Origin: Dictyostelium discoideum
Taxonomy: Eukaryota
Length of the DNA stretch: 64,000 bases
Direction: 5' to 3'
Assembly: GCA_000004695.1 (NCBI GenBank)
Contig: CM000152.2
Coordinates: 3,552,001 to 3,616,000 of the forward strand
Part shown: one piece after another, positions 6,986-64,000 of the stretch
How the letters are laid out: each line of letters begins with the position of its first letter
Numbering within the stretch: the stretch's first letter is position 1
Notes under the pieces: model-generated
What the model saw: only the letters and a program-made list of their open reading frames with translations
Databases searched by the model: none
What the model was told of the DNA's origin: nothing
Program-made: the position numbers and the translations under genes

Positions 6986-7029
<44 letters not shown>

Positions 7030-7150: not shown

Positions 7151-10381
<3,231 letters not shown>

Positions 10382-21514: not shown

Positions 21515-21565
<51 letters not shown>

Positions 21566-22048: not shown

Positions 22049-22202
22049 TCCATAATAACTAGAAATTTGAAATAAAGAAATCCCTACTAAAATTTCTAAT
22101 TTAAAAAATCTTGGGTAAATTAATAATTATAAAAAAAATTTAAAAATAAAAACTAATGAACTATCACTAGGTTTCAAAAGCTCATTGGGAGGAATATTAT
22201 TT

Positions 22203-25337: not shown

Positions 25338-25479
25338 ATTTCTTTTTTATTTCTATTTTTTTATTTTTATTCTCAAAAAATCTAAAATTAACTTTTTTTT
25401 TTGAAAAAAAAAAAAAAATCGACGTGGTTTCTAATAATATTAATTTTCATGTTTCAAATTTTATTTTTTATTTTTTAAT

Positions 25480-25590
25480 TTCATTTTTTGCGTGGCATTT
25501 TTATTTTTTATATGCATTCACCACATGCACAACTATACAGTCAACGCTTTTGTTTTATTTCCCCATTTTCTCACCAACAACAAAACACTA
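25480..25590 (+). promoter_or_regulatory. Conserved promoter module upstream of ARF-like copy 1 (TATAAAATG box and a conserved upstream element)
   Basis: ...ttatatgcattcaccacatgcacaactatacagtcaacgctt...ccccattttctcaccaacaacaaaacactataaaatg is almost identical to 34035..34135 upstream of copy 2. The flanking AT-rich DNA has diverged. Confidence 0.5.
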
Positions 25591-25716
25591 TAAAATGAAA
25601 AAAAAAAAAGAAAATATTCATTCATTTAATAAATAAGCAAATAAAAAACAAAATAAAACAAAATTATAAATAAATTCATTTAAAAAATATAATTAAAATA
25701 ATAAAATAAAAATAAA

Positions 25717-26283
25717 ATGTTATCAGAATTATTCAACAGTTTAGCATCATTTTTTAGTAACATATTCTCATTATTTGAAGGTAAAAAAGAAACAAGAATA
25801 TTAATGATTGGACTTGATGGTGCAGGTAAATCAACACTTTTATATAAATTAAAATTGGGTGATGTTGTTTCAACCATTCCAACCATTGGTTTCAATGTCG
25901 AAACTATTGAATATAAAAATTTATCAATGACAGTTTGGGATGTAGGTGGTCAACATAAAATTCGTCCATTATGGAAACACTATTATCATGGTTCAAATGC
26001 AGTCATCTTTGTAGTTGATAGTACTGATCGTGAAAGAATGGATGAAGTTAAAGAGGAAATTGATAATCTTTTAATTCAAGATGAATTAAAAGGTACACAA
26101 ATATTAGTATTTGCAAATAAACAAGATATGAATAATGCAATGAATACTGCAGAAATTGTAAACTCTTTAGATTTAAATTCAATTAAAGATAGAAAATGGT
26201 ATGTTCAACCATGTAGCGCCATTAGATCAGATGGTATATATGAAGGATTTGATTGGGTAGCAAATTCACTCAATAATAAATAA
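25717..26283 (+). CDS. ARF-like small GTPase (ADP-ribosylation factor family), 188 aa, copy 1
   Basis: [17 protein letters not shown] (P-loop), [11 protein letters not shown] (switch I), [13 protein letters not shown] (switch II with the catalytic Gln), NKQD, CSA. About 60% identity to ARF1 along the full length. It lacks the N-terminal Gly2 myristoylation site (MLSELF...), so it is ARF-like rather than a canonical ARF. Confidence 0.9.
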
Positions 26284-26409
26284 ATAATAAAATAATAAAA
26301 TAAAAGCCTTGTATATATATAGTAAAATAAATAAAGATAAAATAAAATTTTTTTTTTAATATAACATTTATTTGTTTGTTTGTTTATTTTATTATTTATT
26401 TAAAATAAA

Positions 26410-29076
26410 TTACATAACCGACGAGAGAACCAACAGCAGCAACACAACTAATTGTAATACTTGCAATTGCCCACCTGATAGTTTGGATGTTTTACCGATT
26501 GATGGTGATGGGGATGGAGATATTGATGTTTGAGTTTCTTCAATTTTAACATCATAATGAAATGGTGTAGAGCTTAATTGGAGATATAATACTCCTGATG
26601 TTTCATTAACAAATGAATTGGAATGGCATAATATAAAATCGGAACTGTTTGTAAAATCGGTTTCGTTTGAACTTAATTTTGGTGATATGCTATATTGTAA
26701 ATTACATGAAAGAGAAACATTTTCTGATGAAACTGCCAAGCTTGCATTAATAAAACCTGAAAAGCAAACACCACCAATAGTTATTGAAATACCATCTTTT
26801 TTATTTTTAATGGTTGAAATAACTGTAATCTTTGGTTCTAAATATGTTAATATTGCATTTGGTCCCAAATCATCACCGATTAATATTGAAACAAAGAGTG
26901 GACTCTCTTTACTTTCAGCTCTAACTATTAACATATTTTCATTTTGAACAATTATTGTAGTGTTTTTATTATTTGCTAATACTTTAACTTTGAATTCATC
27001 TCCATTTGACAATAAATTCTTACCAGAAACTGTGATAAAACCTCCACAAGCAATTGTTTTATTATCTTTATTTATTATACCATAAATAACAGGTGGAAAT
27101 TTTAAATTAAATAATGATTCCATATTATTTCCATTTACTGTAATATTAATTGGACCATTTTCATAGGAGTTCAATGTTTTAATAGTTAATTGATTATTTG
27201 TTAATGTTAGAATTTCTGATGAAATATCATTACCATTGAAATAAACTTTAATATATGATATTGAGTTACCGAAATTATTTCCATAAAATGTAATATTATA
27301 TTGACCTTTAGAAAATTTACGATTCTCAATATTTGGTGGAGCATATGAGTATTCATCACTAACTGTCTCTGAGTTTAATTGGAATATGAATTGTTTATTG
27401 ATACCTGTACCATATGGTGTTGAACATGTTGTTACATAGAAACTAGAATTTGAATATTGTAATGATGGTGTTGAACATTGTGTGGCTGATGAATTACCAA
27501 CTGTAATACTTGGTTGTGATGATGAACTAATTGGACAATCCATATAATATAATTCAATATTTAATGATCCATTTGAAAGATTTGGTCTATTGATTACATT
27601 TATTAATAGTGATGCTGAAATTGAAATTGTATTTGAGGTCATATTAGAACGAATGAAATTAATATTAAATGTACTACATCTTAAAAGAGGTAATTTAAAA
27701 GTTAAACTCTTTTCATCAGGCAATATTTTAAATTGGTCTATGTTTATATAACCATTAATTCCATTACTATGTAATTGAATGAACGATTCTCTATTTTTAC
27801 CAAAACGTGTACCAATTAATGTAACAATACCATTTGAATATGATCCACTTGATAAAGTTGGAGCATTATATGAAAATGATACACCATTAGGACTTGTTGA
27901 ATTACAACCACTGAAATTAACGTCAACTTTTAAATGTGTACCACCATATTCATTTGGATCTAATTTACATTCTAATTCAGTTGTAGTTGATTTAATAAGT
28001 GTACATTGTTTATTACCAATTGTAATTGATGGGATAAATGATGAATTTAAAGTTGATGATAATTTTTCACCATTAATTGTTACTATACCACCTAAATAAT
28101 TTGATACTGATGATATTGATGTTATTATTGCTGGGAAACAATGAATAAAATTCCTTTCCATTGAGACTTCATTTACCATAATATAAACAGACATTGGACC
28201 GGGATCAGGCATACTAAAGTTATTCACTTGAATTTGTGTATGATTTACTGAAATATTAAAATTGGGTTGATTAACACCATTAATAGAAACTTCAACCAAT
28301 TTTTTATCTGTAAAGAAGTTATCACCATTAATTGTTAATATGTGTTTCAATGAGTCTGAAACAGTACTTGATATTTTAGGTGATTCGTATGAAAATGGAA
28401 AACGACTACTCCAACTATCTTCATCAAATGAAAATGCAAAATTTCCAGAGCCTGGTGGAATTGTTACAGTAATATTATTACAGTCAAAAGATGGATCAGA
28501 GAAATTACCTTTAATAACAAAAGGATTATTTGTATTTTGAAGCAAATTTGGACCACCCCTTATTCTTAAATAATTGCCAGTAATTACTATATCACCTCCA
28601 GATGTTTTAGGTTTTTTATTATATTTCAAATTAGTTGGTTTTGGAAATCTATAAAATTCTGAAATACTAAATGGACACTCTTCAATTGGACTTGATACTT
28701 CTCTTACACATATCTTACTGTGAACACTACCCCATAATCTTGATAATGGCTCATCTGAATGGAATGTACAATATCTCCTATTACCATCAATAACAAGACT
28801 ACAATCAAAATAATTTGGTGCCATTTCATATCTTGGTGTTGTTTCGTTTTGATACATAATTAAACGGGTGGGATATGAACGATGACTTTGAAATACTAAT
28901 GTGAATGATTTTTCATCAAATATTGCATCTAAAAAAACAAATTAATTGAATAAACAAATTATTATAAATAAATTAAAAAAAAAAAAAAGATATTTACCAA
29001 TTGAGTATGGACGTTCCATTAAATATCCTAATTTAAATATTGAGAATAAAATCAGTAATATTATTTTCTGTTCCAT
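26410..29076 (-). CDS. Secreted IPT/TIG-repeat cell-surface protein, Tgr-like, probably GPI-anchored, about 841 aa, copy 1. Exon 1 is 29076..28998 (signal peptide), intron 28997..28929, exon 2 is 28928..26410.
   Basis: The 815-aa ORF begins without a signal peptide. Upstream, an ATG exon [26 protein letters not shown](G/D) ends at donor GTAAAT and is joined via a 69-bp intron (acceptor TTTTAG) in frame to [36 protein letters not shown]. The body contains multiple IPT/TIG-type repeats ([12 protein letters not shown]..., [55 protein letters not shown]). The C-terminus (...[30 protein letters not shown]) looks like a GPI-attachment signal. There are many N-glycosylation sequons. Confidence 0.75.
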
Positions 29077-30455
29077 TTTTATTATATTTTTATCTTTTGA
29101 ATTTGGATTTATTAGTTATACTTATAAAAAAAATTAATTAAAAAGACAAATTTAACTAAAACGTGAAATAATAATTTTTAATATACGAATAGAAAAAAAA
29201 AAAAAAATAATAAAAATAAAATAAAAAAAAAAATAAAATAAAAAAATAAAATTTAATATTTAAAAAAACCGAAAACAACATCTAAAAATAGAGGCTCTGG
29301 TTAATGAGCTTGATTGGTATATTTCATACATCAACCAAATTAAATTCACAAAACAAAAAAAAAAAAAAAAATATTTGAAAACACAAAACAGTAATTTAAA
29401 AATAAATTATTTTTAAACATCAACCAAAAATTTCTTTTTTATATTTTTAATTGTATTTTTGGTTTGTTAATTAATTATTATTTGATTTTCCTTGAGATAA
29501 TTAAAAAGTAAGTTTTTTTTTTTAAAAAAGGAAATAAATATAAATAATGGAAAATTGAAAAAAAAAAAAAAAAAAAACACAATTTCATATTCTCTTGGGT
29601 TCTCTTTTTTAAAAAAAAAATTACCATATAATGAATAAAAATTTAAAAATTGTTGATGAACCCTTTCTAATTTTAATTAAAAAAGAATTCATTAAAAATT
29701 AAAATAAATATAGTTGATAGAATGCAAACATTTTTTATTTATTTATTTATAATTTGAAATTAATAATACATATTAATTTGTTTTATTTTCTTTAAAAAGA
29801 ATAATAATAATAAATTTAAATAATTAAGAATTGAATCTATGCCAATGAAGTGATTATAAAAGAGTAATAATTAATTATCTTGTGTGGAGAGATTTTTTTT
29901 TTTTTTTTTTTTTATTTTCCATTTTTTTTTTTTTAACTACACGAACAATTTCGCAATGCGATAAACAATGATACATATATGTAATAATTATTTAACATAA
30001 AACAAATTAACAAATCATACTTGAATCACTTTGATCAAATATATGATAGTGAACATAATAAGGGTGGTACTAGAAAACAAGTTGACGAATTATCTATTAA
30101 AGATAAAATTGTTTTGAAAATTTCAAATCTATTACAAATTGTTAAAGAAAAACTAAACTTAAATATTAAATTATTAGGTAAATTATTATATATATATATC
30201 TGTAGTTTTAAAAGTATTATAACATCTTATTAACCAAAAAATATGTATTTCTTTTTTTTTTTATTAAAATAGATTATGGTGCTGATTCTTTAAAAATTGG
30301 ATAGAACTTCAATATGTTCCAATTTCTTTAGTAAAATTACAAAATACTTTAATTAATGATATTATTTTATATATTTCATCTAAATAAATCTCAAAATTTA
30401 TTACACAATTCCATTAAAATTAACACCAATTTAAAAAAAAAAGAAAAAATCAAAT

Positions 30456-33811: not shown

Positions 33812-34247
33812 CATTTAATTGGGAAAAAAAATAATAAAAAATAAAAATTATTAAAATAGAACACCAATAAGAAGATCTTAAAATTCTAATCAAAAAACAA
33901 ATGGAAATATTTTCTTTTTTATTTCTATTTTTTTTCAAATCTAAAAATAACTTTCTTAAAAAAAAAAAAAAAAAAAAGACGTGGTTTAATATTTAAATTT
34001 TTATTTTTTAATTTCATTTTTTGTGTGGCTTTTTTATTTTTTATATGCATTCACCACATGCACAACTATACAGTCAACGCTTTCATTTAATTTCCCCATT
34101 TTCTCACCAACAACAAAATACTATAAAATGAAAAAAGAAAATATTCATTTATTAAATAACAAAATAAAAAACAAATAAAACAAATAAAACAAATTTATAA
34201 ATAAATTCATTTAATAAATAATATAAAATAAAATAAAATAAAATAAA

Positions 34248-34814
34248 ATGTTATCAGAATTTTTCAACAGTTTAGCATCATTTTTTAGTAATATATTCTC
34301 ATTATTTGAAGGTAAAAAAGATACAAGAATATTAATGATTGGACTTGATGGTGCAGGTAAATCAACACTTTTATTTAAATTAAAATTGGGTGATGTAGTT
34401 TTAACCATTCCAACCATTGGATTCAATGTCGAAACTATTGTATATAAAAATTTATCAATGACAGTTTGGGATGTAGGTGGTCAACATAAAATTCGTGCAT
34501 TATGGAAACACTATTATCATGGTACAAATGCAATCATCTTTGTAGTTGACAGTACTGATCGTGAAAGAATGGATGAAGTTAAAGAGGAAATTGATAATCT
34601 TTTAATCCAAGATGAATTAAAAGGTATACAAATATTAGTACTTGCAAATAAACAAGATATGAATAATGCAATGAATACCGCAGAAATTGTAAACTCTTTA
34701 AATTTAAATTCAATTAAAGATAGAAAATGGTATGTCCAACCATGTAGTGCCATTAGATCAGATGGTATATATGAAGGATTTGATTGGGTAGCAAATTCAC
34801 TCAATAATAAATAA
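34248..34814 (+). CDS. ARF-like small GTPase, copy 2 (about 94% aa identity to 25717..26283)
   Basis: Same motifs as copy 1, with about 11 substitutions (e.g. E25D, Y43F, S52L, P83A). The promoter element is conserved at 34035..34135. Confidence 0.9.
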
Positions 34815-35079
34815 ATAAATAATCAAATAAAAGCCTTATATGTTAGTCAGTAAAAATACAAGGCTTTACTGACTAATATACAGTAAAAATAAATAAAGAT
34901 TAATAATTTTTTTTTTTTTTTAATAAACACTTATTTATTGATTTATTTTTTATTTTTTATTTGTTTTTTTTTATTATTTTTTTATTTTTTTTGTTTTTTT
35001 GGTTTATTTATTAATTTATTCGTTGTATTTTTTTTTTTTTTTTTGATTGTTTAATTAAACTACACAACTGACAGATGAT

Positions 35080-37805
35080 TTACTGGTTGATGGTGAAGGA
35101 TGAGAGCACCAACAGTATCACCAACACAAACAATTGAAATACCTGCAATTGCCCACCTGATAGTTTGGATGATCTACCGTTTGATGATGGAGGAGATAAT
35201 GGTAATTGAATTTCTTCAATTTTAACATCATAATGGAATGATGTTGAGCTAAATTGGAGATATAATACTCCTGATGTTTCATTAACAAATGAATTTGAAT
35301 GGCATGACAAACAATCGGTACTATTTGTAATATCAGTTTCATTTGAACTTAGTTTTGGGTTACTATCATACAATGTCTCATTTGGTGATAAACTGCATTG
35401 CAAATTACATGAAAGAGATACATTTGTTGATGAAACTACCAAACTTGCATAAATAATACCTGATAAACTAACACCACCAACTGATATTGAAATACCATCT
35501 TTATTATTTTTAATGGTTGGAATAACTGTAATCATTGGTTTTAAATATGTTAATATTGCATTTGGTCCCAAATCTTCTCCAATATATGTTGAAACAGAGA
35601 GTTGACTCTCTTTACAATCAGCTCTAACTATTAAAATCTTTTCATTTTGAACAATTATTGTAGTGTTTTTATAATTTGCTAATACTTTAACTTTGAATTC
35701 ATCTCCATTTGACAATAAATTCTTACCAGAAACTGTGATAAAACCTCCACAAGCAATTGTTTTATTATCCTTATTAATTATACCATAAATAACAGGTGGA
35801 AATTTTAAATTAAATAATGATTCCATTTTAATTCCATCCACTGTAATATTAATTGGACCATTTTCATAGGAGTTCAATGTTTTAATAGTTAATTGATTAT
35901 TTGTTAATGTTAGAATTTCTGATGAAATATCATTACCATTGAAATAAACTTTAATATATGATATTGAGTTACCGAAATTATTTCCATAAAATGTAATATT
36001 ATATTGACCTTTAGAAAATTTACGATTCTCAATATTTGGTGGAGCATACGAATATTCATCACTAATTGTATCTGAATTTAATTGAAAAATGAATTGTTTA
36101 TTGATACCAGTGCCATATGGTGTTGAGCATGTTGTTACATAGAAACTAGAATTTGAATATTGTAATGATGGTGTTGAACATTGAGTAGATGATGATGAAT
36201 TACCAACTGTAATACTTGGTTGTGATGATGAACTAATTGGACAATCCATATAATATATTTCAATATTTAATGAACCGTTTGAAAGATTTGGTCTATTGAT
36301 TACATTTATTAATAGTGATGATGCTGAGATTGAAATTGTATTTGAGGTCATATTAGAACCAACCAATTTCACTCGAGTGAAATTAATATTAAATGTACTA
36401 CATCTTAAAAGAGGTAATTTAAATGTCAAATTCTTTTCATCAGACGATACATTTAATTGGTCAATTTTAATATTATCATTAATTCCATTACCATATAATT
36501 GAACGAATGATTCTTCATTTTTACCAAAATGTGTACCAATTAATGTAACAAAACCATTTGAATATGATCCACTTGATAACGTTGGAGTATTATATGTTAA
36601 TGTTACACTATGAGGATTTATTGAATTACAACCACCGAAATTAACGTTAACTGGTAAATTTTTACCACCATTTTGATTTGGATCTAATTTACATTTTAAT
36701 TCATTTGTATTTGATTTAATATATGTACATTGTTTATTACCAATTGTAATTGATGGAGTAAATGATGAATTTAAAGTAGAAAATAATTTGTCTCCTTGAA
36801 TTGTTACAATACCATCGGAATAATTTGATACTGATGATACTGATATAATTAATGGTGGGAAACAATGAGTATAATTCTTTTCAGCCGGGATTTCATTTAC
36901 CTTAACACTAATTGAAATTGGGCCTAGATCAGGTCTATTAACGTTATTCACTTGAATTTGTGTATGATTTACTGAAATAATAAAATTTGTTTGCTTAATA
37001 TCATCAAAATAAACCTCTACCAAGCTTTTATCTGTAAAGAAGTTATCACCATTAATTGATAATATTAGGTACCCTCCGTCAAAAAAAGTACTTGATATTT
37101 TAGGTGATTCGTATGAAAATGGAAAAAGATTATCCCCAGTTTCATCAAAGGCAAATTCAAAATATCCAGAGCCTGGTGGAACTACTACAGTAATATTATT
37201 ACAGTCAAAAGATGGATCAGAGAAATTACCTTTAACAACAAAAGATGTCATATAATCAAATGTAGTTAGAATGTGATTTGGACCACCCCTAGATCTTAAA
37301 TAATTACCAGTAATTACTATATCACCTCCAGATGTTTTTGGTTTATTACTATATTTCAAATTAGTTACAAATGGATAATCTAAAGATGAAAGATCAAATG
37401 AACACTCTTCAACTGGACTTGATACTTCTCTTGCACATACCTTACTTTCTATACTACCCCATAATCTTGAAAATGGCTCATCTGAATGGAATGAACAATG
37501 TCTCCTATTACCAATAACTAGACTACAATTAAAATAATTTGGTGCCATTTCATATCTTGGTGTTGTTTCGTTTTGATACAAAATTAAACGGGTTGGGTAT
37601 GATCGAAAACTTTCAAAAGTTATTGAAAATGATTTTTCATCAAATATTACATCTTTGAAAAATAAATTAATTGAATAAATAACATAAACAAATTATTTAT
37701 TAAAATATTATGATACTTACCTACTGACATTGGACGACCAACTGAATGTCCTGATTTAAAAATTGAGAATAAAAATAAAATCAGTAATATTATTTTCTTT
37801 TCCAT
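35080..37805 (-). CDS. Secreted IPT/TIG-repeat Tgr-like surface protein, copy 2, about 861 aa. Exon 1 is 37805..37721, intron 37720..37653, exon 2 is 37652..35080.
   Basis: Signal-peptide exon [28 protein letters not shown] is followed by donor GTAAGT and acceptor CAAAG|AT, in frame with [36 protein letters not shown] (the track ORF starts at a TTG). The C-terminal ~45% is nearly identical to copy 1. The N-terminal ~400 aa has diverged by roughly 30-40%, by eye. Confidence 0.75.
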
Positions 37806-37909
37806 TTTTATTTATTTTTATTTTATTGAATTTGGCTTTAAAAATAATATCGATTTAAAAAAGAGAAATTTTATTATTAATCGAGAAAATAATTTTTAAT
37901 TAAATAATG

Positions 37910-37940
<31 letters not shown>

Positions 37941-38682
37941 AAAATAGTAAGAATAATAAAAAAAAAAAAAAAAAATAATTAAAATAAAAACCAGCATTAA
38001 CTTCCAAAAATAGATATTGATTGGTATCATTTCATACATCAACCAAAAAAAAGATGTATAAATCTATTAAATTCACAAACAAACAAAATCCAAAAAAAAA
38101 TTTCTTTTTTAATTATCTTTTTGGTTTGAAAATTAATTTTTATTTGATTTTCCTAAATTTTTAATAACATTCAATCATCAATTCAAAATAATATTTATGT
38201 TAAATCTTTTTTTTTATAAAAAAAAAAAAAAAAAATAAAAATAAATTTAATTGACCGATTTTAAACATTTTTTATTTAAAAATTATAAACATTTGAAATT
38301 AAAAATAAAATACAAATTTTTTAATTTTGTATTTTATTACAATCTCTTAATTTCAAATGTTACGAATTAATAATAAAACACAAATTAATTTGTTTATTTT
38401 CTTTTAAAGAATTAATTGTAAATAATAAAAATTAATTAAAACAATTAAGAATTGGATGTATGTGAATTAACTGATAATAAAAGGGTAATAATTAACCATC
38501 TTGTGTATGTGTGAGAGTATTTTTTTTTTTTTTTAAAATTTTAAACCATGGAAATAAAAAAAATAAAAAAAATAAAAAAAAAAAAAAAAAATAAAAAAAA
38601 AAAAAAAAAATGAAAATATGTTTTTTTTTTTTTTTTTTTTTTTATTATTTTTTTTAGTATACTAAAACAACAGTACTCGAAA

Positions 38683-44245: not shown

Positions 44246-44979
44246 ATTTTTAATCTTTAGCATACAAACAATATTTTAAATATTAAAAAATACTACAATT
44301 TTATATATATAAAAAAATCCTTTTTAAATAATTTATTTTTGTAGTATAAAAAAAAAAATAAAAAAAAAATAAATAAAGAAAATAAATTATTTATTTGTTT
44401 GTTATATCTTTTTTTTTTTTTTCTTTTTTTTTTTTTTTTTGAACACAAATAATCTTTATTTTTTAATAATAAAAATAATAATTTTAAATTTAAATTTAAA
44501 TTTTCACTAAATTGTTTCTTAAAATAGGAATACAATTGATATTCAAAGTTAACTGCATATGTTGTAGTGAAAAAAAAAAAAAAATTTCCCCACATCAACA
44601 ATCGGGAATTTTCACAGTAAAATACAATGTATTAAAAAAATGTCAAGCAAATAATAAAAAAAAAAAAAAAAAAAAAAAAAATTAAATAGAAAAATAAGTT
44701 TAATGTAAAGTGAATGTAAATTTTTAGTGGATTTTATCACTACGTAGCTTGACATTTTTTTTTTTTTAAATTTATTTACTTATTTATTTATTTACTTATT
44801 TATTTATTTTTTTATTTATTTTATTTATTTTAATTTATTTTTTTTTTTTTTTTTTTAATAACTCTTAAATCAAATAACCTTCAAATCGAAAAAAAATTTT
44901 AGTTGGTTATCATAGTTTAGTAAAAAAAAAAAAAAAAAAAAAAAAATTTATATCAAAGTTTATAATTTAAAAAATACAA

Positions 44980-45520
44980 TAATGTATATAGATAATAAAA
45001 AATATACATTCCATACACACCAAATGTGTTGTGTCGTTTCATTTTTGAAAGAAAAAAATGAAAATTCCCACTATTACCACCAAACACATTGGCATTCATT
45101 TTTTTTTTATGTCAATAAATTAAATGAATACAAAAAAAACTCACACTCACCACCACACCCACTTCTATATATCAAATTTGTATTGCATTTTTATTTTGTG
45201 TCTTTTCATAATAATAACAAAACACACCAAATGTGTTGTGTCTTTTCATTTTTTAAAACAAAAAATACTATAATTGTATTTATTCTCTAGTGTCGTTTCA
45301 TTTTTGAAAGAAAAAAAGAAAACTCTCAATATTACCCCAAACAAATTGGCATACATTTTATGTCAATAAATTATATGAATACAAATTAAAAAAACTCACA
45401 CCATCTATACATCTTATTTGTATGACATTTTTATGTTGTGTCTTTTCATTTTCCAAACAAAATTCTACAACTGATTTCATTCTCTTGTATCGTTTCATTT
45501 TTTAAAAAAAATAATACATT
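44980..45520 (-). repeat. Two units of the ~250-bp repeat family (same family as the tandem array at 60400..61130, opposite orientation)
   Basis: Repeated core acaccaaatgtgttgtgtc(g/t)tttcattttt...gaaagaaaaaaa(g)aaaa(t/c)tc(c/t)ca(c/a)tattacc...aaacacattggcat is the reverse complement of ...atgccaatttgtttggtggtaatagtgag...ctttcaaaaatgaaacgacac...aaaatgaaaagacacaacacatttggtgtg at 60420..60560. Confidence 0.7.
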
Positions 45521-45573: not shown

Positions 45574-46190
45574 GATCACGTTCATGTTTATTTTTGAGTG
45601 TTCTATTTATCTATACTAAATTCATGTTAAAAATAAATAAAATTAAATCGTTAAAAAATAAGAAAATTTGAATTTAATTATTCATTTTTTGTAATTGTTT
45701 TTTATATTATTTTTTCTTGCAAGGTGGAATTCCTTAAAATTGGTAAATTCTTAAAAAATGTCAAATGTAAGTATTAAGTATTTTTACTGTGAAAATTCCC
45801 AAAGTTTGTGGGGAAATTTTTTTTTTCCACTCTCTGTATTGTTGAGTATTTTAAAAAAAAAAAAAAAAAAAAATTAAATAAATAAAAAAAAAATAAAAAT
45901 AGATTGAGAAAGGGGTTTCTGTGCAACATTATAAAAAAAAAAAAAAATTAAATCAATTTTAAATTGAAATTTCATACAAACAAATAATATAATTGTAAAG
46001 AAAAAAATTATTTAATAACATTGATTTAATTACCGCTTCTATTAACAAAAGAAAATTATTTTTTATTTTTGTTTTAATTTATTTTTATTTTTTTTATTTT
46101 TTTTTATTTTAATTTATTTTCTAAATAGATAATATATATATTATAAAATTAAAAATTGATTTAATTTTATAAACAAAAAATTATTTGTTT

Positions 46191-48211: not shown

Positions 48212-49559
48212 AATAGTGCGATATATTATTACTTGGTTTATTGCACTAAATTTTATTATGACAACACTATGACCACAAAAGTTTGTATAACTTAATTTTT
48301 TAATTTTCCATTGTTTTTTTTTTTTTTTTTAAAATTGATGTTTTTATCCTATCAGAGAAAAAATATTTTTTTAATATAAATTAGTATATAAAAATTGAAC
48401 ATTCAAAAATACACAATATGATAAAGAAAATAATTTATCCGTTCTTTTTTTTGAATTTTTTTTTTTTTTTTTGATCTAGATTTACAAATAAAAAATTATC
48501 ATTAAAAAACAAAATATGCCAATGTGTTTGGTGGTAATAATGAGATTTTTCTTTTTTTTTCTTTCAAAAATGAACCGACACGATAGAATGAATTCAATTT
48601 TAGTATTTTTTTCCTTCAAAATTGAAAAGACACAACACATTTGGTGTGTTTTTTATTTTTTTTATAATTTTTTTTTTTATTAAATTAAGAGAGTTGTTAA
48701 ATAATAATTATAATAATAAAAATAATTTTCAAAACAATTAAAATAAAGAATATATTACATCATCCAACAGAAAATACATTTTATACAATTTAATTTACCT
48801 TTAATATTTATTAAATTGAATTTATAAATTTTAAATAAATAAATAACTTTTATTTTTGTTAATTATTTTTTTTTTTTTTATAAAAGGTTGTTATTAAAAA
48901 ATTTTTTGTTTGGTTTTTTTTTTTTTTTTTAAATTTAAAAAAAGAATGTTAACTTATAGATCACTTTGCTAATGCCAGATAGTAATGAAATTAAACCATA
49001 GAAACTATTAAAATATTTTAGTGGTGAATTTTTTTATATTGCCTTGAATCAAGAGATTCTTGCTGCCTATGGCTGTTTGCCTATTTTTTCGTGTGCGACC
49101 ATTTGGTAAACTTGACATTTTAGGCTGCACCATGGTGATCGGCGACCACCACATACAAAGACTTAATTGAAAAAAAAAATTAAAATTTTATTTTTTAAAT
49201 TAGGCTCGTGACCAAATAAAAAACGCTTCAAACATACAACGAAATAAAATAAAATAAAATAAAATAAATAAAAAAATTATTTGTAATAATATTTTAAAAA
49301 ATAAATATTAATTTTAAAATTAATCAATTATTCTTAAACTATTATTTTATATAAATAAATCATTATTACCTTATTTAATTAAATAATATAAACAATTATT
49401 TTATTATTTTAATTTTCTATTAAATAAATTTGTTTTTTTATTTTTGTTTTATTTTTTCTTCATCTACAAGAATCATATTCTATATGTTAATGATTATTGA
49501 CTGTATTGTTGCGCATATGGTGATTTTTTTTATCTTTTTTTTTTTTTCTTTTTAAATAA

Positions 49560-50280: not shown

Positions 50281-51666
50281 GATTGGACTAAAAAAAAAAA
50301 ATAAAAAAAAAAAATAAAAAATTGTGAATGATAAATATTAAATATATTATTTTTTTTTTTTTTTTTTTTTAAATAAATAATAATTTAATACAATGTGGTA
50401 ACAATTGTGAATAAAAAAATAATAATTAATTCATTTTATGGTCAAACATCAAAAAATAAAAAATAAAAAAAGATCTGGCCAATTTTTTTTTTTTTTAACG
50501 TTGCGATAACTTTTTTTTTTTTTGATTTTTTTTTTTTTTTTTTTTTTTGATTTTTTTTTTTTTGATTTTTTTTTTTGCTTTTTATAAACTTTTTTTTTTT
50601 TCTCAACGTTTTCTGTATAAATTTTTTAAAAAATTGTTGGTGCAGTTAATTAATAAATAAAAAAATATAAAAAAAAAAAATTTTAGATTATTAATTGTTT
50701 TCTTTTTTTATTTTTATTTATTTTTTTTTTTAAAAAGCTCATTATTTTCTTTAAAAGGATTATAATGAGAATTGGATGGGTGGGAGGGGGTTATATTACC
50801 TATTTTTTAAGAAGATTTACTTTGTTATACCTTTTCTTTCAATGGTAACTATTGATAAAAAAATAAAATTATAATAATAAAATTAAAATTCAAATATTAA
50901 TTTTTTTTTTTTTTTTAATTTTAAAGATTAGTTTATGGTAGAGAAAACTTCCTAAAGAGCAACAAAGGTTCTGATTGGATAAACTTCAATTTACGGCAAT
51001 GGTACTTTAAAGTTTCCAAAAAGATTGTCCCAAAAGGTACGGCAATGGTGCTATTGGAACAAAAATATAACCAGCAACAATAAAAAAAAAATAAAAAATA
51101 AAAAAAAAAATAAAAAAAACTATTTCTTCTTGTGTTTGTTTTATTTATTCCTTTATTACTATACATTTTTTTTATATACCTCTTTGTTTTATTATCTTTT
51201 TTATCATTAAATTAGTGATATAAATCAAATAATAGTTTTATTTTTTTTTTTTTTTTGTTTTTTTTTTTATTATTTTTTTTTTTTTTTTATTACTATACAC
51301 ACCAAATGTGTTGTGTCTTTTCATTTTTCAAACCAACAAATACTGCATTTGCAATAATCTTTTTAATTATGTTGTGTTTATTTTTTTACATTACCAAAAA
51401 TTACTATTTCACCCAAACAGTGGTTGGTAGTGTTGTTATTTTTTTTACTTATATTTTTTTATTTTTTTATTTTTTTAATTTTTTTTTTTATGTGAGAATT
51501 AAATTAAAATACAAAAAAAAAATAAGAATAAAACCATTTTTTGTATATTTTTTCTATTTTCCCACGAAATCACAGAATTGTTGACCCCCAATGAGTGGTT
51601 TTTGTTTTTATAATTTTTTATTTTTTTTTATTTTTTTCAATTCATACACACAAAATAAAATCATAA

Positions 51667-52451: not shown

Positions 52452-53289
52452 TTTAAAATCAAAACAATTTTATTTAATTTTACTTTTCAAAAAAAAAAAA
52501 AAAATAATAATAATAATTTGTATTAACAAATAAATAAATAAATAAAAATATAGCAATAAAGATTAAAAATTAAAAACACATAAATTATTTATTTTTTAAT
52601 ATTTCTTTTTTTTATTTATTTATTTTTAATAATTTAAAAATTAATTTTGGATATAATCCACACTTGATCCTGTTGATGTTGCAGTTTTTGCTAAAATGTT
52701 TGTCAATTGTTTTTTTATTTTTTATTTTGTAAATGAGTTATAAAAGCATTTAGAGGTAAATCAATTGTTTTTTTATTTTTTATTTTGTTTTTTTTAAGTT
52801 TTATAAATTTCTATGGGGAGTCGCACAGAAAATAAAATAATAAAAGAAAAATAAAAAAATAAAAAAAAACAAACCCACAAAATTACTTTTCACCACCTTT
52901 AATGCTGAAATTTTTACGTCAGACCCCTTATAAATTTCTTTATTTCTTTATTTATTTTATTTTTTTTAAATATTCATATTAAAAATAAATAAAATTAAAT
53001 CGTTAAAAAATTAAAATAAAAAATTTTGATAAATAATTATTTATCATTCATTTTTTGTAATTGTTTTTTTATTTTGAAGACAACAAAATGGAAGATTTTT
53101 TAAAAAAAAAAAAAAAAAAACCAAAAAAAATTGATTTATTTGGAATATTTTTTTATTTTATTTATGTTTTTTTTATGGAATGTGGGTTTTTTTATTATCT
53201 GTATTTTTTTTCTCTCAAAAAAGAAACGACACTACACATTTGTTGTATGAATTTATAAAACCTTAAAATTAAATATAAAAAAAAAAATA

Positions 53290-53401
53290 AAAATAAAAAA
53301 AATAAAAATAAAAATTCCCTTTCTAAAGAGTGAAACATTATGTGTCTTTTTTTGTTATTCATCAAATTTTATTTATTTTTTTTTCTATTTTTTTATAATT
53401 A

Positions 53402-53492
<91 letters not shown>

Positions 53493-53545
53493 TAAATAAA
53501 TAATACAGAAATTAAGTAAATAAAATTCGGATGGAACCTACATAA
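53290..53545. repeat. Repeat segment present in inverted orientation at 61755..62000. It flanks the 3' side of both copies of the 160-aa ORF, in different arrangements.
   Basis: RC of 61921..61990 matches 53300..53365. 53505..53545 (tacagaaattaagtaaataaaattcggatggaacctacat) is the RC of 61760..61800. Each is adjacent to a 50-70-nt homopolymer (poly-T at 53413..53482, poly-A at 61811..61870). Confidence 0.6.
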
Positions 53546-53550
53546 ATTTA

Positions 53551-54033
53551 TTATTGTCCTTGATTTGGTTGGTTTGGTTGGTTTGCTGCTGCTGCTGCTG
53601 CTGCATCATCCTCAGCGAATAACTGGGCGATGAGATTCATGTCAACTAAATCGTGAGTATTAACTGGTGTTAAAACTGCATAGTTAATATCAATATGGGG
53701 ATATTGTTTTTGTGTATATAATATGGCCTCGTCAACTTCAGCTCTGATATCCCAACCTGCTTGATCAGATCTTGCGAAAAAAATAGCAGCGGTGTCACCC
53801 ATTTTTGGGTACCATATTGGGTTTCTATTGAGTCTTGCTTTAAATCTTTTTCTGGCATTTGTTATGTAATTAGGTGAGGCGTAATCATAATTGGCACCGT
53901 TATTGGTAGCAGCCAAGGCAAGTACAGTTTGTGGTATTTGATCTAAATCTCTAATTTTTATTGCTTTTGTGACAATTACTTTTGAACAATACACACCATT
54001 GTCATTATATAAACTTGGGTTGATTGACGACAT
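53551..54033 (-). CDS. Hypothetical 160-aa protein with GC-richer codon usage, copy A. The ORF is probably repeat- or transposon-associated.
   Basis: MSSINPSLYNDNGVYCSKVIVTKAIKIRDLDQIPQTVLALAATNNGANYDYASPNYITNARKRFKARLNRNPIWYPKMGDTAAIFFARSDQAGWDIRAEVDEAILYTQKQYPHIDINYAVLTPVNTHDLVDMNLIAQLFAEDDAAAAAAANQPNQPNQGQ. The coding GC is about 40%, against roughly 25-30% for other genes here. It is 99% identical to 62124..62606, including ~200 bp of the 5' flank. No family recognised. Confidence 0.5.
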   Translation of the reverse strand: MSSINPSLYNDNGVYCSKVIVTKAIKIRDLDQIPQTVLALAATNNGANYDYASPNYITNARKRFKARLNRNPIWYPKMGDTAAIFFARSDQAGWDIRAEVDEAILYTQKQYPHIDINYAVLTPVNTHDLVDMNLIAQLFAEDDAAAAAAANQPNQPNQGQ

Positions 54034-54534
54034 TCTTGAAAAAATAAAAAAATTAAAAAAAAAAAATTTTTTTTGAAATGATTTTTATCTAAAATATTTC
54101 GAGATTTTATAAAAAAAATTAAACTTTTTTTGATTTTGCAGCGTCACCACTACTATGTAAAATATTTACAATGCATTTACAATGCAATTACATTGTGATT
54201 TGTCTTTAAGTAAATTAACGTATCCCATATTAATTTTATCTATAATCAGAGAGATATAAAACTAATTTTTTTTTTTTTTTATATCTAAAAACTAGGAAAA
54301 AATATTAAAAAATAAAAATAAAAAAATCTTTTTAATTAAAAATATTTATTCGGTCATTCATTTTTCTTTTTTTTTTTTAAAAAAAAAACAATAAATAAAT
54401 AAAGGAAAAAAAGAAATTTATGAAACTTAAAAAAAAAAAGTAAAAAAGTTTTTTTTGGAATTTATTTTTTTTTTTTTTTTATATTTATAATTCAACAATA
54501 AACAAAATCAACAACATAATGTCTAAATGATCAA

Positions 54535-55650: not shown

Positions 55651-55794
55651 CACCTGGCATTGGCAAAAGTGATCTATAAGTTAAAAATTTTTAACTTATA
55701 GATCTATAAGTTAAAAATTTTTTTTAAATTGTTTAAAAAAAAAATAAAAAAAAAAATTAATTAAATTTTCTAAAATACATTTTATACAGTTTTA

Positions 55795-55872
55795 TTTACT
55801 GTTGTAGGGAATTTTTTTTGAAATTTCGCTTTCTAAACGGCAGTGAATTTTTACACTAAAATACACTGTTTA
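55795..55872 (+). repeat. Solo copy of the 70-bp terminal inverted repeat of the MITE-like element (see 62791..63734)
   Basis: ctgttgtagggaattttttttgaaatttcgctttctaaacggcagtgaatttttacactaaaatacactgtttatac is identical to the left TIR at 62791..62866. Confidence 0.7.
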
Positions 55873-56518
55873 TACCTTTATTTATTAAATTGAATTAATA
55901 AATGTATAACTTTTTTTTATTTTTTTTAATAAATTTTTTTTTTTTTTTTTTTTTTTTATATGGATTGATGTATAAACAAAATAATTCAAAATTGTAAAAT
56001 TAATTATTAAAATTAAAAATAAAAATAATAAAAAATAATAAAAATTAATAATTAAAATTAAAAATAAAAATAATAAAAATATGAATTTTATTACTAAATC
56101 TTTTTTTTTTTTTTTTTTTAATTTTTATTCCCATTTTTCCTTTTTTTTTTTTTTTTTTTAGATTTACTGTACTTTACTTTATATTTGTCGTCAATGCATC
56201 ACTTTGAAAATTTAAAATACATAACAAAAAAAAAAAAAAAATTAAACAGTGCAGGAATTGATTTTTCAATTAAAAAAAAAGAAAAATCTCACTATTTCCA
56301 TGATTATTGTTTCTATTAATACTATAACCCCATTATTATTACCATTTATATTAATATTATTATAAATTGTTTTTTTTTTTTTTGTTCACCCCCAATAAAT
56401 TTATCACAAAATATGTCCTCATTCATTAGTTATTAAAGAAACTAAAAATAAAATAAAACAATAAATATAATTAAAATAACAAAATAAAATAAAATAAAAT
56501 AAAATAAAATAAAATAAA

Positions 56519-56636: not shown

Positions 56637-58760
56637 TACGTCAATGTTGTACTTGGTCCCTGGACGAACTCCTGTAGTATTTTTATTATTTGATTTTACA
56701 TTAACTTTGAATTCTTTGTCACTTGTCAATAAATTCTTACCAGAAACTGTGATATGACCTCCACAAGTAAGTGTTTTATTATCTTTATTTGTTATATGAT
56801 AAATGACAGGAGGTAATGTTAAATAAAAGAATGAATCCATATAATTACCATCTACAGTAATATTAATTGGGCCATTTTTATATGAATCCAATATTTTAAT
56901 AGTTAATTGATGATCTTTTAATTCTAGAATTTCTGATGAAATATCACTACCATTTAAATAAACTTTAATTAATGATGTTGAATTACCAAAATTATTACCA
57001 TGTAATTCAATATTAGTTCCATCATCTGAAATTGTACGATTCTCAACTTCAGGTGGTGCATATGAGAATTGATCACTGACTGTCTCTGAGTTTAATTTGA
57101 ATATAAATTGTTTATTAATACCAGTGCCATATGGTGTTGGACATGTTGTTTTATAGTAACTAGAATTTGATGATGGTATTGAACATAGTGAGGCTGATGA
57201 TGAATCACCAACAGTAATACTTGGTGCTGGTGAACTAATTGTACAATCCATATAAAATATTTCAATATTTAATATTCCATTTGATACTGTTGGTCTATTG
57301 GTTACATTTACTGATAATGATGCAGAAATTGAAAGTGTGTTTGCGGTAATATTAGAACGAGTGAAATTACTATTAAATGATCTACATCTTAAATGAGGTA
57401 ATTCAAATGTTAAACTCTTTTCATCAGATGATACATTAAATTTGCTAATGTTTGTATTATTAATTCCATCACCTATAATTGAATGGATGATTCGTTATTT
57501 GTACCAAGATTTGTACCAATTAATGTAACGATACCATTTGAATATGACCCACTTGATAATGTTGGAATATTATATGTAAATAATACACCATTAGGACTTG
57601 TTGAATCACAACCACCGAAATTAACTTTAACCGGTAAGTTTTTACCACCCAGTTCATTTTTTTCTTATTTACATTCCAATTCAGTTGGTGTTGATATAAT
57701 AAATGTACATTGTTTATCACCAATTATAATTGATGGTGTCAAAGATGAATTTAAAGTCGAAGATAGTTTTTCACCTTTAATTGTTACAATACCATCTAAA
57801 CGATTTGATAATGATGATATTGATGTTATAATTGCTGGGAAACAATGATTATAATTCTTTTCAATTGAGACACCATTTACGGTAATACTAACAGACATTG
57901 GGCCAGGCGCAACTCTATTAATGTTACTCACTTGAATTTGTGTATGATTTACTGAAATAATAAAATTTAGTTGAGTAATACCATCAAAATAAACCGTAAC
58001 CAACTTTTTATTTGTAAAGAAGTTATCACCATTAATTGTTATTATTTGTTTCAATGAGTCAAAAACGGTACTTGATATTTTAGGTGATACGTATGAAAAT
58101 GGTACTTTAAATACACCAGTTTCATCATAGTACAACCTAAAAGTTCCAGATCCTGGTGGAAATATTACAGTAATATTATTTAGAGTAGATCCATCAGAGA
58201 AATTACCTTTAACAACCAAAGGTTTAGAAGTATCAATGGAATTTAGAAGGAAATTAGGACCACCAAATAATCTTAAATATGAGCCAGTAATGACCCTATC
58301 TTCACCAGATGTTTTGGTTTTTTACTATATTTCAAATTGGATGCTTTTGGATAATATATTAAAGGCGAAACATCAAATGTACAATCCTCAACAGTATTTG
58401 ATATATCTCTAGCACATATCTTACTGTCTATACTACCCCATAATCTTGAGAATGGTTCATCTTAATGGAATAAACAATGCTCTCTCCATCAACTAGGGTA
58501 CAATTGAAATAATTTGGTGCCATTTCAGTTCTGGGTTCTTTTTCGTTTTTATACAAAATTAAACGGGTAGAATATGGGAGATTACTATTAAAAATAAATG
58601 TAAATGATTTATCATCATATATTACATCTAATAAAAAAAATTAATTACATAAACAAATTATTATAAATAATTAAAAATTTAATGATAATACCTATTGGTG
58701 ATGGACGATACATTGAATATCCTGATTTAAAGAACAAAAATAAAATCAGTAATATTATTT
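56634..58760 (-). pseudogene. Third Tgr-like IPT/TIG gene copy, degenerate: several frameshifts/stops and the C-terminal ~200 codons deleted
   Basis: A signal exon ([26 protein letters not shown], ~58755..58680), a 68-bp intron, then a body homologous to copies 1 and 2. The body is broken into ORF pieces 57665..58219 and 56634..57251, with stops or frameshifts near 58330, 58470, 57640 and 57480. It ends ...[24 protein letters not shown], where copies 1 and 2 continue for ~200 more aa. Confidence 0.7.
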
Positions 58761-58926
58761 TCTGTTCCATTTTTATCAATAATTTTTTTTATTTTGAACT
58801 TGGCTTTGTCAATAATTTTTATAAAAGAAAATTAAAAAAGAGAAATTTAATTATTTTAGGAAATTTTAATTTTAATTAAATAAATAGATAAAAAAAGATA
58901 AAAAAAAATTAATAAATGTAGAAAAA

Positions 58927-60110: not shown

Positions 60111-60399
60111 TGGTAATAAATGGTTAAATAAATAATAAAAAAAAAAAAAAAAATATAATCCAGGTTTAATTAATTTTAAAACAAATTATTTATTCCATCC
60201 ATTTTTTTTATTATTTTATTAGTATAGATAAATAGAACACTCAAAAAATTAACAAAATGATATAAAAAATAAAAAGAAATGAAGGTGACCACTTTATTTT
60301 TAAATTTTTAAATTTTTTTTTTATTTTTTTTTTTTTATATATATTTAATTATATTTCTATAAATATATATATGAAAAATATAAATAAAATGATTTTATT

Positions 60400-61130
60400 T
60401 ATTTATTGAAGTATAAAAAAATATATGAGAATGTGTTTGGTGGTAATAGTGAGGGTTTTCTTTTTTTTTCTTTCAAAAATAAAACGACACTAGAGAATGA
60501 ATACAATTTTAGTATTTTTTGTTTTAAAAAATGAAAAGACACAGCACATTTGGTGTGTATTGGGTGTGTGTTTTTGTTATTGTTATGAAAAGACAAACAT
60601 AAAAATGCCATACAAATTTGTTTTTAGAAGTGGGTGTGGTGGTAAGTGGGTTTTTTATATGTATTTATATTCATATAATTTATTGATTATAAAAAAAATA
60701 TTCCAATGTGTTTAGTGGTAATAGTGGGAGTTTTCTTTTTTTTCTTTCAAAAATGAAACGACACAAGAGAGTGGGTTTAGTTGTGCAATTTTGTTTAAAA
60801 AATGAAAAGACAAAAAATAAAAATTACATACAAATTAGATGTATAGAAGTGGGTGTGGCGGTAAGTGTGAGTTTTTTATTTGTATTTATAATTTATTGAT
60901 ATAAAAAAAATATATGATTATTTGTTTGGTGGTAATAGTGAGGATTTTCTTTTTTTTTGTTACAAAAATGAAACGACACTAGAGAATGAATACAATTTTA
61001 GTATTTATTATTTTAAAAAATGAAAAGACACAACACATTTAGTGTTTGTGGAATGTGGGTTTTTTTATTATCTGTATTTTTTTTCTTTCAAAAAAGAAAC
61101 GACACTACACATTTGTTGTATGTATTTTAT
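60400..61130 (+). repeat. Tandem array of about three units of a ~250-bp repeat (satellite-like)
   Basis: Three successive units each contain ...gtgtttggtggtaatagtgag(g/a)(g/t)ttttc(t)nctttcaaaaatgaaacgacac(t/a)agagaatgaatacaattttagtattt...aaaaaatgaaaagacacaacacatttggtgtg...ggtgtgg(t/c)ggtaagtg.... Partial dispersed copies lie at 44980..45520(-), 48500..48660, 51290..51340 and 53080..53260. Confidence 0.7.
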
Positions 61131-61875: not shown

Positions 61876-62123
61876 TAATGTAAATTTTATTTATTTTTTT
61901 TCTATTTTTTTATAATTATTTTAGTAATTGTTTATTTTAATAGTAATATTCAAATTTGATGAATAACAAAAAAAGACACATAATGTTTTACTCTTTAGAA
62001 AGGGAATTTTTATTTTTATTTTTTTTATTTTTATTTTTTTTTTATATTTAATTTTAAGGTTTTATAAATTCACAATGAGACCTAGTATTATTATATAAGA
62101 GTTAAATTAAATAAACTAATTTA

Positions 62124-62606
62124 TTATTGTCCTTGATTTGGTTGGTTTGGTTGGTTTGCTGCTGCTGCTGCTGCTGCATCATCCTCAGCGAATAACTGGG
62201 CGATGAGATTCATGTCAACTAAATCGTGAGTATTAACTGGTGTTAAAACTGCATAGTTAATATCAATATGGGGATATTGTTTTTGTGTATATAATATGGC
62301 CTCGTCAACTTCAGCTCTGATATCCCAACCTGCTTGATCAGATCTTGCGAAAAAAATAGCAGCGGTGTCACCCATTTTTGGGTACCATATTGGGTTTCTA
62401 TTGAGTCTTGCTTTAAATCTTTTTCTGGCATTTGTTATGTAATTAGGTGAGGCGTAATCATAATTGGCACCGTTATTGGTAGCAGCCAAGGCAAGTATAG
62501 TTTGTGGTATTTGATCTAAATCTCTAATTTTTATTGCTTTTGTGACAATTACTTTTGAACAATACTCACCATTGTCATTATATAAACTTGGGTTGATTGA
62601 CGACAT
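62124..62606 (-). CDS. Hypothetical 160-aa GC-richer protein, copy B (2 aa differences from copy A)
   Basis: Identical to 53551..54033 except V14E and V47I. The 5' flank (62607..62790) is identical to 54034..54240, until it is interrupted by the MITE-like insertion. Confidence 0.5.
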   Translation of the reverse strand: MSSINPSLYNDNGEYCSKVIVTKAIKIRDLDQIPQTILALAATNNGANYDYASPNYITNARKRFKARLNRNPIWYPKMGDTAAIFFARSDQAGWDIRAEVDEAILYTQKQYPHIDINYAVLTPVNTHDLVDMNLIAQLFAEDDAAAAAAANQPNQPNQGQ

Positions 62607-62790
62607 TCTTGAAAAAATAAAAAAATTAAAAAAAAAAATTTTTTTTGAAATGATTTTTATCTAAAATATCTCGAGATTTTATAAAAAAAATTAAACTTTT
62701 TTTGATTTTGCAGCGTCACCACTACTATGTAAAATATTTACAATGCATTTACAATGCAATTACATTGTGATTTGTCTTTAAGTAAATTAA

Positions 62791-63009
62791 TGTTGTAGGG
62801 AATTTTTTTTGAAATTTCGCTTTCTAAACGGCAGTGAATTTTTACACTAAAATACACTGTTTATACGTAGTGTAAAAATTCACTAAAATTTTTTTTTTTT
62901 TTTTATAAATTAAAAACAATTTATTTAATCAAAATAATAAAAAAACTAATTTTAAACAATTATTTGTTGTTTAAGAATTAAATAACAATTTAAATTGTTA
63001 GATTTGAGC

Positions 63010-63047
<38 letters not shown>

Positions 63048-63334
63048 TTTTTTTTTTATTTTTTATTTTTCTTTTTTTTTTATTTTTCATTTTTTTTTTA
63101 TTTTTTATTTTTTTTTTTTATTTTTTTTTTTTCATTTTTTTTTTTATGTAACGAAGACACAAAAATAAGTTAATATTAAATAAGTGAACAAAGACACTAA
63201 TTATAGTTGACCCGCATTTAAATAATAATAATAATAATAATAATTCTATTAACTCGAGTTTATAATTATAAATAATATAAATACTAAAAATAATTATATA
63301 AACAATAATGAATACCATAATTAAAATATAAACC

Positions 63335-63379
<45 letters not shown>

Positions 63380-63470
63380 ATTTTTTTCAATTTTTTTTTA
63401 TCGAACAATTTTATTTTATTCCCCAAAAATGAAAACAATCGATAAAAAAAAAAATTGAAAAAAATAATTG

Positions 63471-63502
<32 letters not shown>

Positions 63503-63734
63503 GCAAACTAAATTTTTTTGTTATAAAAAATAAATAACAAGCAAATAACTGAATAAAATTGGTTTTTTATTTTTCTGATTAAATAAATTGTTTTTTAATT
63601 TAATTATAAAAAAAAAAAAAATTTAGTGAATTTTTACACCATGCATAAACAGCGTATTTTAGTGTAAAAATTCACTGCCGTTTAGAAAGCGAAATTTCAA
63701 AAAAAATTCCCCACAACATTAACGTATCCCATAT
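62791..63734. mobile_element. Non-autonomous DNA-transposon-like element (MITE/foldback type, ~944 bp) with ~70-bp terminal inverted repeats and a TTAA target-site duplication
   Basis: The empty site is visible in the paralogous copy at 54230..54240 (gtaaaTTAAcgtatccc). The filled site here is gtaaaTTAA[TGTTGTAGGGAATTTTTTTTGAAATTTCGCTTTCTAAACGGCAGTGAATTTTTACACTAAAATAC ... gtattttagtgtaaaaattcactgccgtttagaaagcgaaatttcaaaaaaaattccccacaaca]TTAAcgtatccc. The internal ~760 bp are AT-rich with no ORF. Confidence 0.75.
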
Positions 63735-64000
63735 TAATTTTATCTATAATCAGAGAGATATAAAACTATATTTCCCTAATTATAGATCAAACAAATAAGA
63801 ATCAATAATCTAATTCACAAATTCAATTTTAAAAAAAGGATAAAAAAATCAGGCAATAATAATTATGGGATGTGTAAAACATTCACAACAATTATATTTA
63901 TTTATTCATCGTTATGTTGACATGAATTTTGAACATCTTTAATAAGAAGAAATTGTTTTATATAGTCTGACATTAACAAACTAAACGATTCGGTGCATTG

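Follow-up and report, generated by a model that had tools for sequence, protein, structure and literature searches.

We found that a 928-bp non-coding foldback element interrupts the sequence upstream of one of two nearly identical V4 genes on chromosome 3 of Dictyostelium discoideum. It lies exactly at a TTAA, and the corresponding site of the other V4 gene contains that TTAA as a single, uninterrupted copy. Both genes are in the stretch of 64,000 nucleotides that we analyzed, referred to here as the window. The element is non-autonomous and MITE-like (class II). Judging from its sequence, we believe that it is a foldback MITE that inserted at the TTAA upstream of V4 and that it was most likely moved by a Tdd (Ginger2/TDD) transposase, a reading that we favor with moderate confidence.

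The insertion site is filled in one V4 paralog and empty in the other

An open reading frame of 160 amino acids is present twice in the window, in both cases on the minus strand: at 53551-54033 (copy A) and at 62124-62606 (copy B). Both encode V4 ('vegetative-specific protein V4', P14330). The empty site belongs to copy A, DDB_G0280533, and the filled site to copy B, DDB_G0280543, whose ATG is 184 bp from the insertion. We compared the sequences around the two genes. The flank that includes the gene is 99.4% identical over 674 nt (62118-62790 in copy B and 53545-54218 in copy A; blastn). On the far side of the insertion, the two copies are 98% identical over 56 bp (63718-63773 in copy B and 54214-54268 in copy A), and then the homology ends. 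The paralogous block of copy A (53545-54268) comprises DDB_G0280533 and 235 bp upstream of it.

Copy B exceeds copy A by 932 bp, that is, by the 928-bp element plus one TTAA, and the excess is located exactly at a TTAA. There is a TTAA on each side of the element in copy B, at 62787-62790 (junction TAAGTAAATTAA / TGTTGTAGGG) and at 63719-63722 (junction CCCCACAACA / TTAACGTATCCC), and the sequence across the insertion reads ...GTAAATTAA / TGTTGTAGGG...CCCCACAACA / TTAACGTATCCC. In copy A there is one TTAA, at 54215-54218, and the empty site reads CTTTAAGTAAATTAACGTATCCC. Checking the filled site against the empty site demonstrates both the target-site duplication and the boundaries of the element, 62791 to 63718. 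A near-identical paralog pair, with an insertion placed precisely at a TTAA present once in copy A and twice in copy B, had been reported in a preliminary description of this DNA, and here the alignment and direct reading of the sequence agree. Three of its values are corrected by the boundaries given above. The length of 944 bp, with an end at 63734, extended 16 bp into the flank, and the empty-site TTAA had been placed at 54233-54236.

The context of the target is A-TTAA-C, and a duplication of 5 bp (ATTAA) is formally possible. The 5-bp reading would give the element the end ...CAAC, breaking the CA-3' rule, and a duplication of 4 bp is therefore favored. TTAA makes up 1.8% of the 4-mers in the window, and the chance of finding it at a random 4-bp target is about 0.02. 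At this frequency a single TTAA duplication is suggestive, yet it is one datum. Both the piggyBac and the Kolobok superfamilies are defined by TTAA duplications, and an exact duplication of TTAA facing a single TTAA at the empty site (~2% by chance) counts in their favor. It is possible, although we think it unlikely, that the element is a MITE of one of these TTAA-specific superfamilies, with its DDD/DDE transposase encoded elsewhere. The empty site would then be either the pre-insertion site or the product of a seamless piggyBac-type excision.

The element is a long foldback and is non-coding

The element is 15% G+C and is bounded by inverted repeats that start at the first base after the TTAA. 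The left arm (62791-63087, plus strand) has the terminus 5'-TGTTGTAGGG, and its first 65 nt are nearly perfect. The right arm (63425-63718, minus strand), which pairs with the left arm by blastn, has the terminus ...CCCCACAACA-3'. Without gaps, the two arms match at 64 of 65 positions and then at 92 of 97, with mismatches at positions 7, 66, 75, 77 and 79. The full inverted repeat is ~300 bp (62787-63087 against 63722-63425) and is 84.6% identical over 306 aligned positions (blastn). Perfect terminal inverted repeats (TIRs) of ~70 bp had been claimed previously. The repeats are indeed at the boundary, and they are neither perfect nor confined to 70 bp. Based on the near-perfect ends and the imperfect continuation to ~300 bp, we conclude that this is a long foldback element. 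As single-stranded DNA, its full length forms one long hairpin with a minimum free energy of -207 kcal/mol, compared to -104 +/- 5 kcal/mol for dinucleotide shuffles (z = -19.5).

There is also a smaller, subterminal hairpin in each arm, with a stem of 15 bp. The one in the left arm (62833-62884) consists of AGTGAATTTTTACAC, a 22-nt loop and GTGTAAAAATTCACT, and was detected as a self-inverted blast match (fold z = -4.5). The right arm has its own copy of the hairpin (63625-63676; fold z = -3.7). With a hairpin in each arm, the motif GTGAATTTTTACAC occurs four times in the element. These copies are plausible candidates for a subterminal binding site.

The centre of the element is mostly homopolymer T and A tracts. 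Its homology to a ~220-bp repeat family found elsewhere in the window is not above that of shuffled sequences. This family is dispersed and locally tandem, with cores ...AAAAATGAAACGACAC... and ...ATGAAAAGACACAACACATTTGGTGTG... and 80-90% identity. It is found at 60394-61130, 45029-45515, 48503-48649, 51295-51344 and 53172-53254, and also in strain GCA_054859385.1 (locus position 6447-7219).

The element has no coding capacity. Its open frames are of low complexity only, and the longest has no homologue among 5.8 billion proteins. These results uphold the preliminary description, and the ends, the duplication and the searches of open reading frames all agree that this is a MITE-like, non-coding element bounded by TIRs. 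Rfam, scanned against 52-64 kb, matched at chance level only and identified no RNA family for the element. No transposase domain was detected among the open reading frames of the window, and this counts against piggyBac or Kolobok as its source. We also considered a Helitron, and rejected it: there are TIRs and symmetric ends, no TC start and no CTRR end.

The foldback structure and the absence of an open reading frame bear on another possibility, that the element belongs to one of the catalogued repeats thug-S, thug-T or DDT-S and was moved by that family's own, poorly characterized transposase. It would then be a known repeat at one more site. We regard this as possible but rather doubtful. 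The repeats of D. discoideum were charted in 2001, DDT makes up 0.9% and thug 0.1% of the genome, and their transposases are unlike any known family (PMC5633606). Hairpins of thug-S give rise to small RNAs, akin to the foldback structure here. Furthermore, the window is identical to AX4, and the reference annotation therefore very probably covers the sequence of the element. In contrast, thug-S has been described with an annotated gene and an intron, and the element has no open reading frame. In addition, the published D. discoideum small-RNA (miRNA) sequences that we retrieved, a set that includes thug-S only uncertainly, do not match the window. By analogy, it is a possibility that the foldback feeds a small-RNA pathway, as thug-S does.

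A second terminus and other possibly related sequences

A solo terminus is located at 55800-55875 (plus strand). It is identical to the left end of the element at 76 of 76 nt and breaks off inside the hairpin loop. This second terminus indicates that the element belongs to a repeat family. The identity ends exactly at the first T of TGTTGT, with A in one and C in the other just outside, and so the boundary of the element is placed there independently of the focal junction. For the same reason, we disfavor the TA (Tc1/mariner) reading, in which TA would be duplicated and the element would start ATGTTGT. The complete identity of the 76 nt argues that members of the family were probably identical until recently. 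The preliminary description correctly reported a solo terminus here, at slightly different coordinates (55795-55872). Its outer flank is TTAC and not TTAA. TTAC matches TTAA at three of four positions, a point in favor of piggyBac or Kolobok. A perfect 28-bp palindrome (CTATAAGTTAAAAATTTTTAACTTATAG; 55675-55702), followed by a partial direct repeat, precedes the solo terminus by about 100 bp.

Three miniature foldbacks with related termini had also been proposed, and they differ in how well they withstand comparison to shuffled sequences and to other strains. An 89-bp foldback at 20500-20588 has the same 11-12-nt termini; one terminus is an exact 12-mer, for which 0.003 occurrences per window are expected, and its inverted partner is present. 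It is located at a strain-specific indel breakpoint. The second piece, at 44560-44640 (plus strand), resembles the left arm weakly and in diverged form: TGTTGTAGTGA... is followed by GAATTTTCACAGTAAAATAC with the same spacing. Only its 29-nt subterminal motif is clearly above shuffles. The terminus is doubtful, and partly orthologous sequence from another strain is without the TGTTGTAG terminus. The third piece (45775-45830) is marginal, its score being reached in 2 of 500 shuffles. We treat the pieces at 20.5 kb and 44.5 kb as possible members of the family at most. A TTAA duplication is seen at one insertion, the focal one. The outer flank of the solo terminus is TTAC, and TTAA is absent from the flanks of both short pieces. 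If these short pieces are related, their flanks are a further point against piggyBac or Kolobok.

The foldback at 20.5 kb (TGTTGTAG...CTACAACA) is the start of a 1.66-kb segment (20498-22157) and coincides precisely with its left indel breakpoint; strain GCA_054859355.1 has ~26 bp in place of the segment (locus about 17090-17065). The segment adjoins tRNA-Lys(UUU) at 22246-22318, and within it, at about 21867-22047, is an N-terminal fragment resembling cytochrome P450. Beyond the window, at the equivalent of 65438-65486 and 66883-66931, two sequences separated by 1.4 kb form a perfect 49-bp inverted repeat. Rather than a transposon, these are apparently the 5' ends (ATGACATCTATATTTGGAGATTTAATTTTACAAG...), identical to each other, of two paralogous genes in opposite orientation.

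One complete copy and the one 76-nt solo terminus are present within 68 kb. A sample of 114 kb from other loci and strains of D. discoideum, obtained via Tgr paralogs, contained no further copy. Exact 37-mer and 22-mer patterns from the TIR had no match in collections of metagenomes and prokaryote genomes, which exclude Dictyostelium. The region at 60.1-61.7 kb was examined as a further copy with TIRs and rejected, as there are no TIR-like ends there.

Timing and direction of the event

The two flanks of the insertion together contain 5 differences in about 730 bp. Since the flanks are near-identical on both sides, the event is later than the last duplication or gene conversion of the 0.72-kb block. 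Very recent mobility had been proposed for the element. This holds relative to the last homogenization of the paralogs (0.6% divergence) and does not extend to an absolute date. The same filled and empty pair would be produced by precise excision from copy A, or by a palindrome-stimulated deletion between the TTAAs. We infer that the direction was insertion, rather than excision.

It is very improbable, in our view, that no transposition was involved and that the 932-bp difference is a deletion in copy A, caused by slipped mispairing between the TTAAs around the palindrome or by some other rearrangement of the paralogs. Long inverted repeats between short direct repeats are prone to deletion, and the element is a very stable foldback. 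Other rearrangements are also present in the flanks of the paralogs (an inverted 122-bp piece and differing spacers). However, a deletion accounts for loss of the element and not for its origin, and the transposon anatomy remains. Moreover, a 76-nt identical terminus is found 7 kb away with unrelated flanks, and this requires mobility or duplication of the element.

The other rearrangements are downstream of the two V4 genes. One piece, of 122 bp, has 98% identity between the copies but lies in opposite orientations (61952-62072 and 53248-53369); long tracts of poly-T/poly-A border it, and 53367-53481 consists of about 115 T. A second piece, of 83 bp, is in direct orientation (61045-61127 and 53172-53254). 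Based on these two pieces, the flanks of the paralogs have been rearranged besides the insertion.

The V4 genes and the surrounding locus

Since the insertion precedes the ATG of copy B by 184 bp, it splits the short upstream region of DDB_G0280543, and it may affect expression of that gene.

The window corresponds to about 3.63-3.69 Mb of chromosome CM142509.1 in assembly GCA_054883475.1. It is a tgr cluster (allorecognition-type IPT/TIG, TgrO1-like Ig) and contains duplicated modules of an Arf-GTPase plus Tgr, at 25451-29523 and 33892-37971. The V4 copies are separated by a third Tgr gene (56646-58782), which shares 82-88% identity with published alleles of TgrC1. Across the tgr region, other strains have only about 85-92% DNA identity to the window. 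In strain GCA_054859385.1, there is no V4 gene on either side of the matching tgr locus (JBTAPF010000026.1, 41255-63999), which aligns to 56.7-61.2 kb of the window. V4 proteins in the protein database are from the AX4-type genome only, and V4 is not annotated in the assemblies of other strains. Taken together with the absence from the GCA_054859385.1 locus, this indicates that the V4 pair may be lineage-specific, or may be unannotated elsewhere.

Candidate transposases

The element encodes nothing, and so its transposase must come in trans. We infer both mobilization in trans and the superfamily of the transposase. The sequence of events could have been as follows. A large foldback MITE would have entered the TTAA upstream of the start codon of one recently homogenized V4 copy, and its insertion would have doubled the TTAA. 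The transposase acting in trans would recognize the 65-bp ends with their near-perfect match and, probably, the four hairpin-forming copies of GTGAATTTTTACAC as well. The mobilizer would be the Tdd integrase-like transposase, which would cut an AT-rich palindromic target with a 4-bp stagger.

The termini, 5'-TGTTG...CAACA-3', conform to the TGTNR...YNACA (TG...CA) rule, which is common to Gypsy LTRs, Ginger1 and Ginger2/TDD (PMC2836005, PMC6839031). The Ginger2/TDD elements are named after Tdd-4 (3839 bp, with a 260-bp TIR) and Tdd-5 (3783 bp, with a 297-bp TIR), both from D. discoideum, and they encode a retroviral-integrase-like transposase (PMC2836005, PMC6839031). TIRs of Ginger2 are 45-297 bp, and metazoan members have 4-bp duplications in the AT-rich palindrome RTATAY (PMC2836005, PMC6839031). 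For Tdd-4 and Tdd-5, duplications of 5 bp have been reported, and the target of Ginger1 is a 4-bp palindrome, CCGG (PMC2836005, PMC6839031). The arms of the element (~297 bp, 84.6% identical) are inside the range of Ginger2/TDD TIRs. The duplication, whether 4 bp (TTAA) or 5 bp (ATTAA), is in the 4-5-bp range by length, and its sequence is not TATA. The focal target, A-TTAA-C, shares the R-NNNN-Y palindromic shape with RTATAY. With TGTTG...CAACA ends that obey a rule for integrases of the retroviral type, and ~300-bp arms like those of Tdd-4 and Tdd-5, the element points to a Tdd integrase-like transposase as its most likely mobilizer. Wells (1999) is said to have captured Tdd-4 via its insertion into a plasmid, which would imply that an active transposase is present in D. 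discoideum.

There are weaknesses in the Tdd reading. The superfamily was assigned from three things: a terminal motif of 5 bases, the length of the arms and a prior from the host. Published Tdd duplications are 5 bp, whereas here 4 bp is favored, and a strict TTAA duplication is classically piggyBac or Kolobok and not Ginger2. There is only one complete copy, and none in the 114 kb of other loci. D. discoideum also carries DDT and thug elements.

The termini are also what weighs against the TTAA-specific superfamilies. The termini of piggyBac are 5'-CC.../...GG-3', whereas the element starts with TG and ends with CA. Kolobok elements have TTAA duplications and 5'-RR...YY-3' ends (PMC6004289, PMC9587614), which likewise differ from TG...CA. 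Since Kolobok also makes TTAA duplications, TTAA is not unique to piggyBac. The preliminary description had taken the TTAA duplication to be the hallmark of piggyBac, and the termini do not support that assignment: TGTTG...CAACA is unlike the ends of piggyBac and like those of Ginger2/TDD. Within the Amoebozoa, a published survey lists piggyBac in Entamoeba alone, and the published distribution of Kolobok has no Amoebozoa (PMC9587614); neither superfamily is listed there for dictyostelids. Based on the terminal motif, the arm length and the host, we rank mobilization by Tdd first and by piggyBac or Kolobok second.

Implications

The DNA transposons of Dictyostelium are poorly characterized, and according to a 2017 review their expression and cellular control had not been studied in detail (PMC5633606). 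As DNA transposons go, the element described here is small and of an ordinary kind, and the repeats of its well-studied genome have long been catalogued. Should the family already be known as thug or DDT-S, then the finding is one well-resolved insertion site. The base-exact filled and empty pair gives the target duplication and the true termini of one family, and it makes a connection to the integrase-like transposase of Tdd testable. It may also offer a natural allele of a V4 paralog with a disrupted promoter. A TTAA duplication alone is insufficient for assignment to piggyBac.

A bolder proposal, and one that we hold to be unlikely, is that this is a still-mobile MITE driven by a Tdd (Ginger2/TDD) transposase that makes 4-bp TTAA duplications in Dictyostelium. 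If this were true, Tdd would add a third route, independent of the other two, to the 'piggyBac-type' TTAA signature, and the filled and empty pair within one genome would represent recent DNA-transposon activity in the lineage of the laboratory strain.

Comparison with known systems

The element resembles Drosophila Foldback (FB) in that long, imperfect inverted arms dominate it and fold back. The arms of FB consist of tandem subrepeats, and FB makes 9-bp duplications. In contrast, the element has a 4-bp duplication, and its arms are made of unique sequence and homopolymer tracts. MITEs of piggyBac are similar to the element in that TTAA is duplicated, and the empty site is compatible with seamless excision. 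They differ from it at the ends (CC.../...GG compared to TGTTG...CAACA), and the arms of the element are far longer than typical piggyBac TIRs. The T2-MITEs of Kolobok (Xenopus Xmix and relatives) also have the TTAA duplication, are non-coding, and have internal material that is A/T-rich or repeated. However, Kolobok ends are 5'-RR...YY-3' (AGG...) and the element starts with TG, and Kolobok is unreported in Amoebozoa (PMC9587614). The repeats thug-S, thug-T and DDT-S, compared by description, are like the element in being small DNA-transposon-like repeats of the same genome.

Tdd-4 and Tdd-5 were likewise compared by description. Unlike them, the element is only 928 bp and has no integrase-like transposase. 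The target also differs: 5-bp duplications are reported in Tdd-4 and in Tdd-5 and metazoan Ginger2 elements have TATA-type targets, whereas the focal target is TTAA. A non-autonomous derivative is known in Ginger2/TDD, Ginger2-1N1_NV, which is 252 bp with a 52-bp TIR (PMC2836005). Tdd-4 and Tdd-5 share with the element the host species, the TG...CA (TGTNR) ends, the long TIRs (260-297 bp compared to ~300 bp), a short duplication and an AT-rich palindromic target (PMC2836005).
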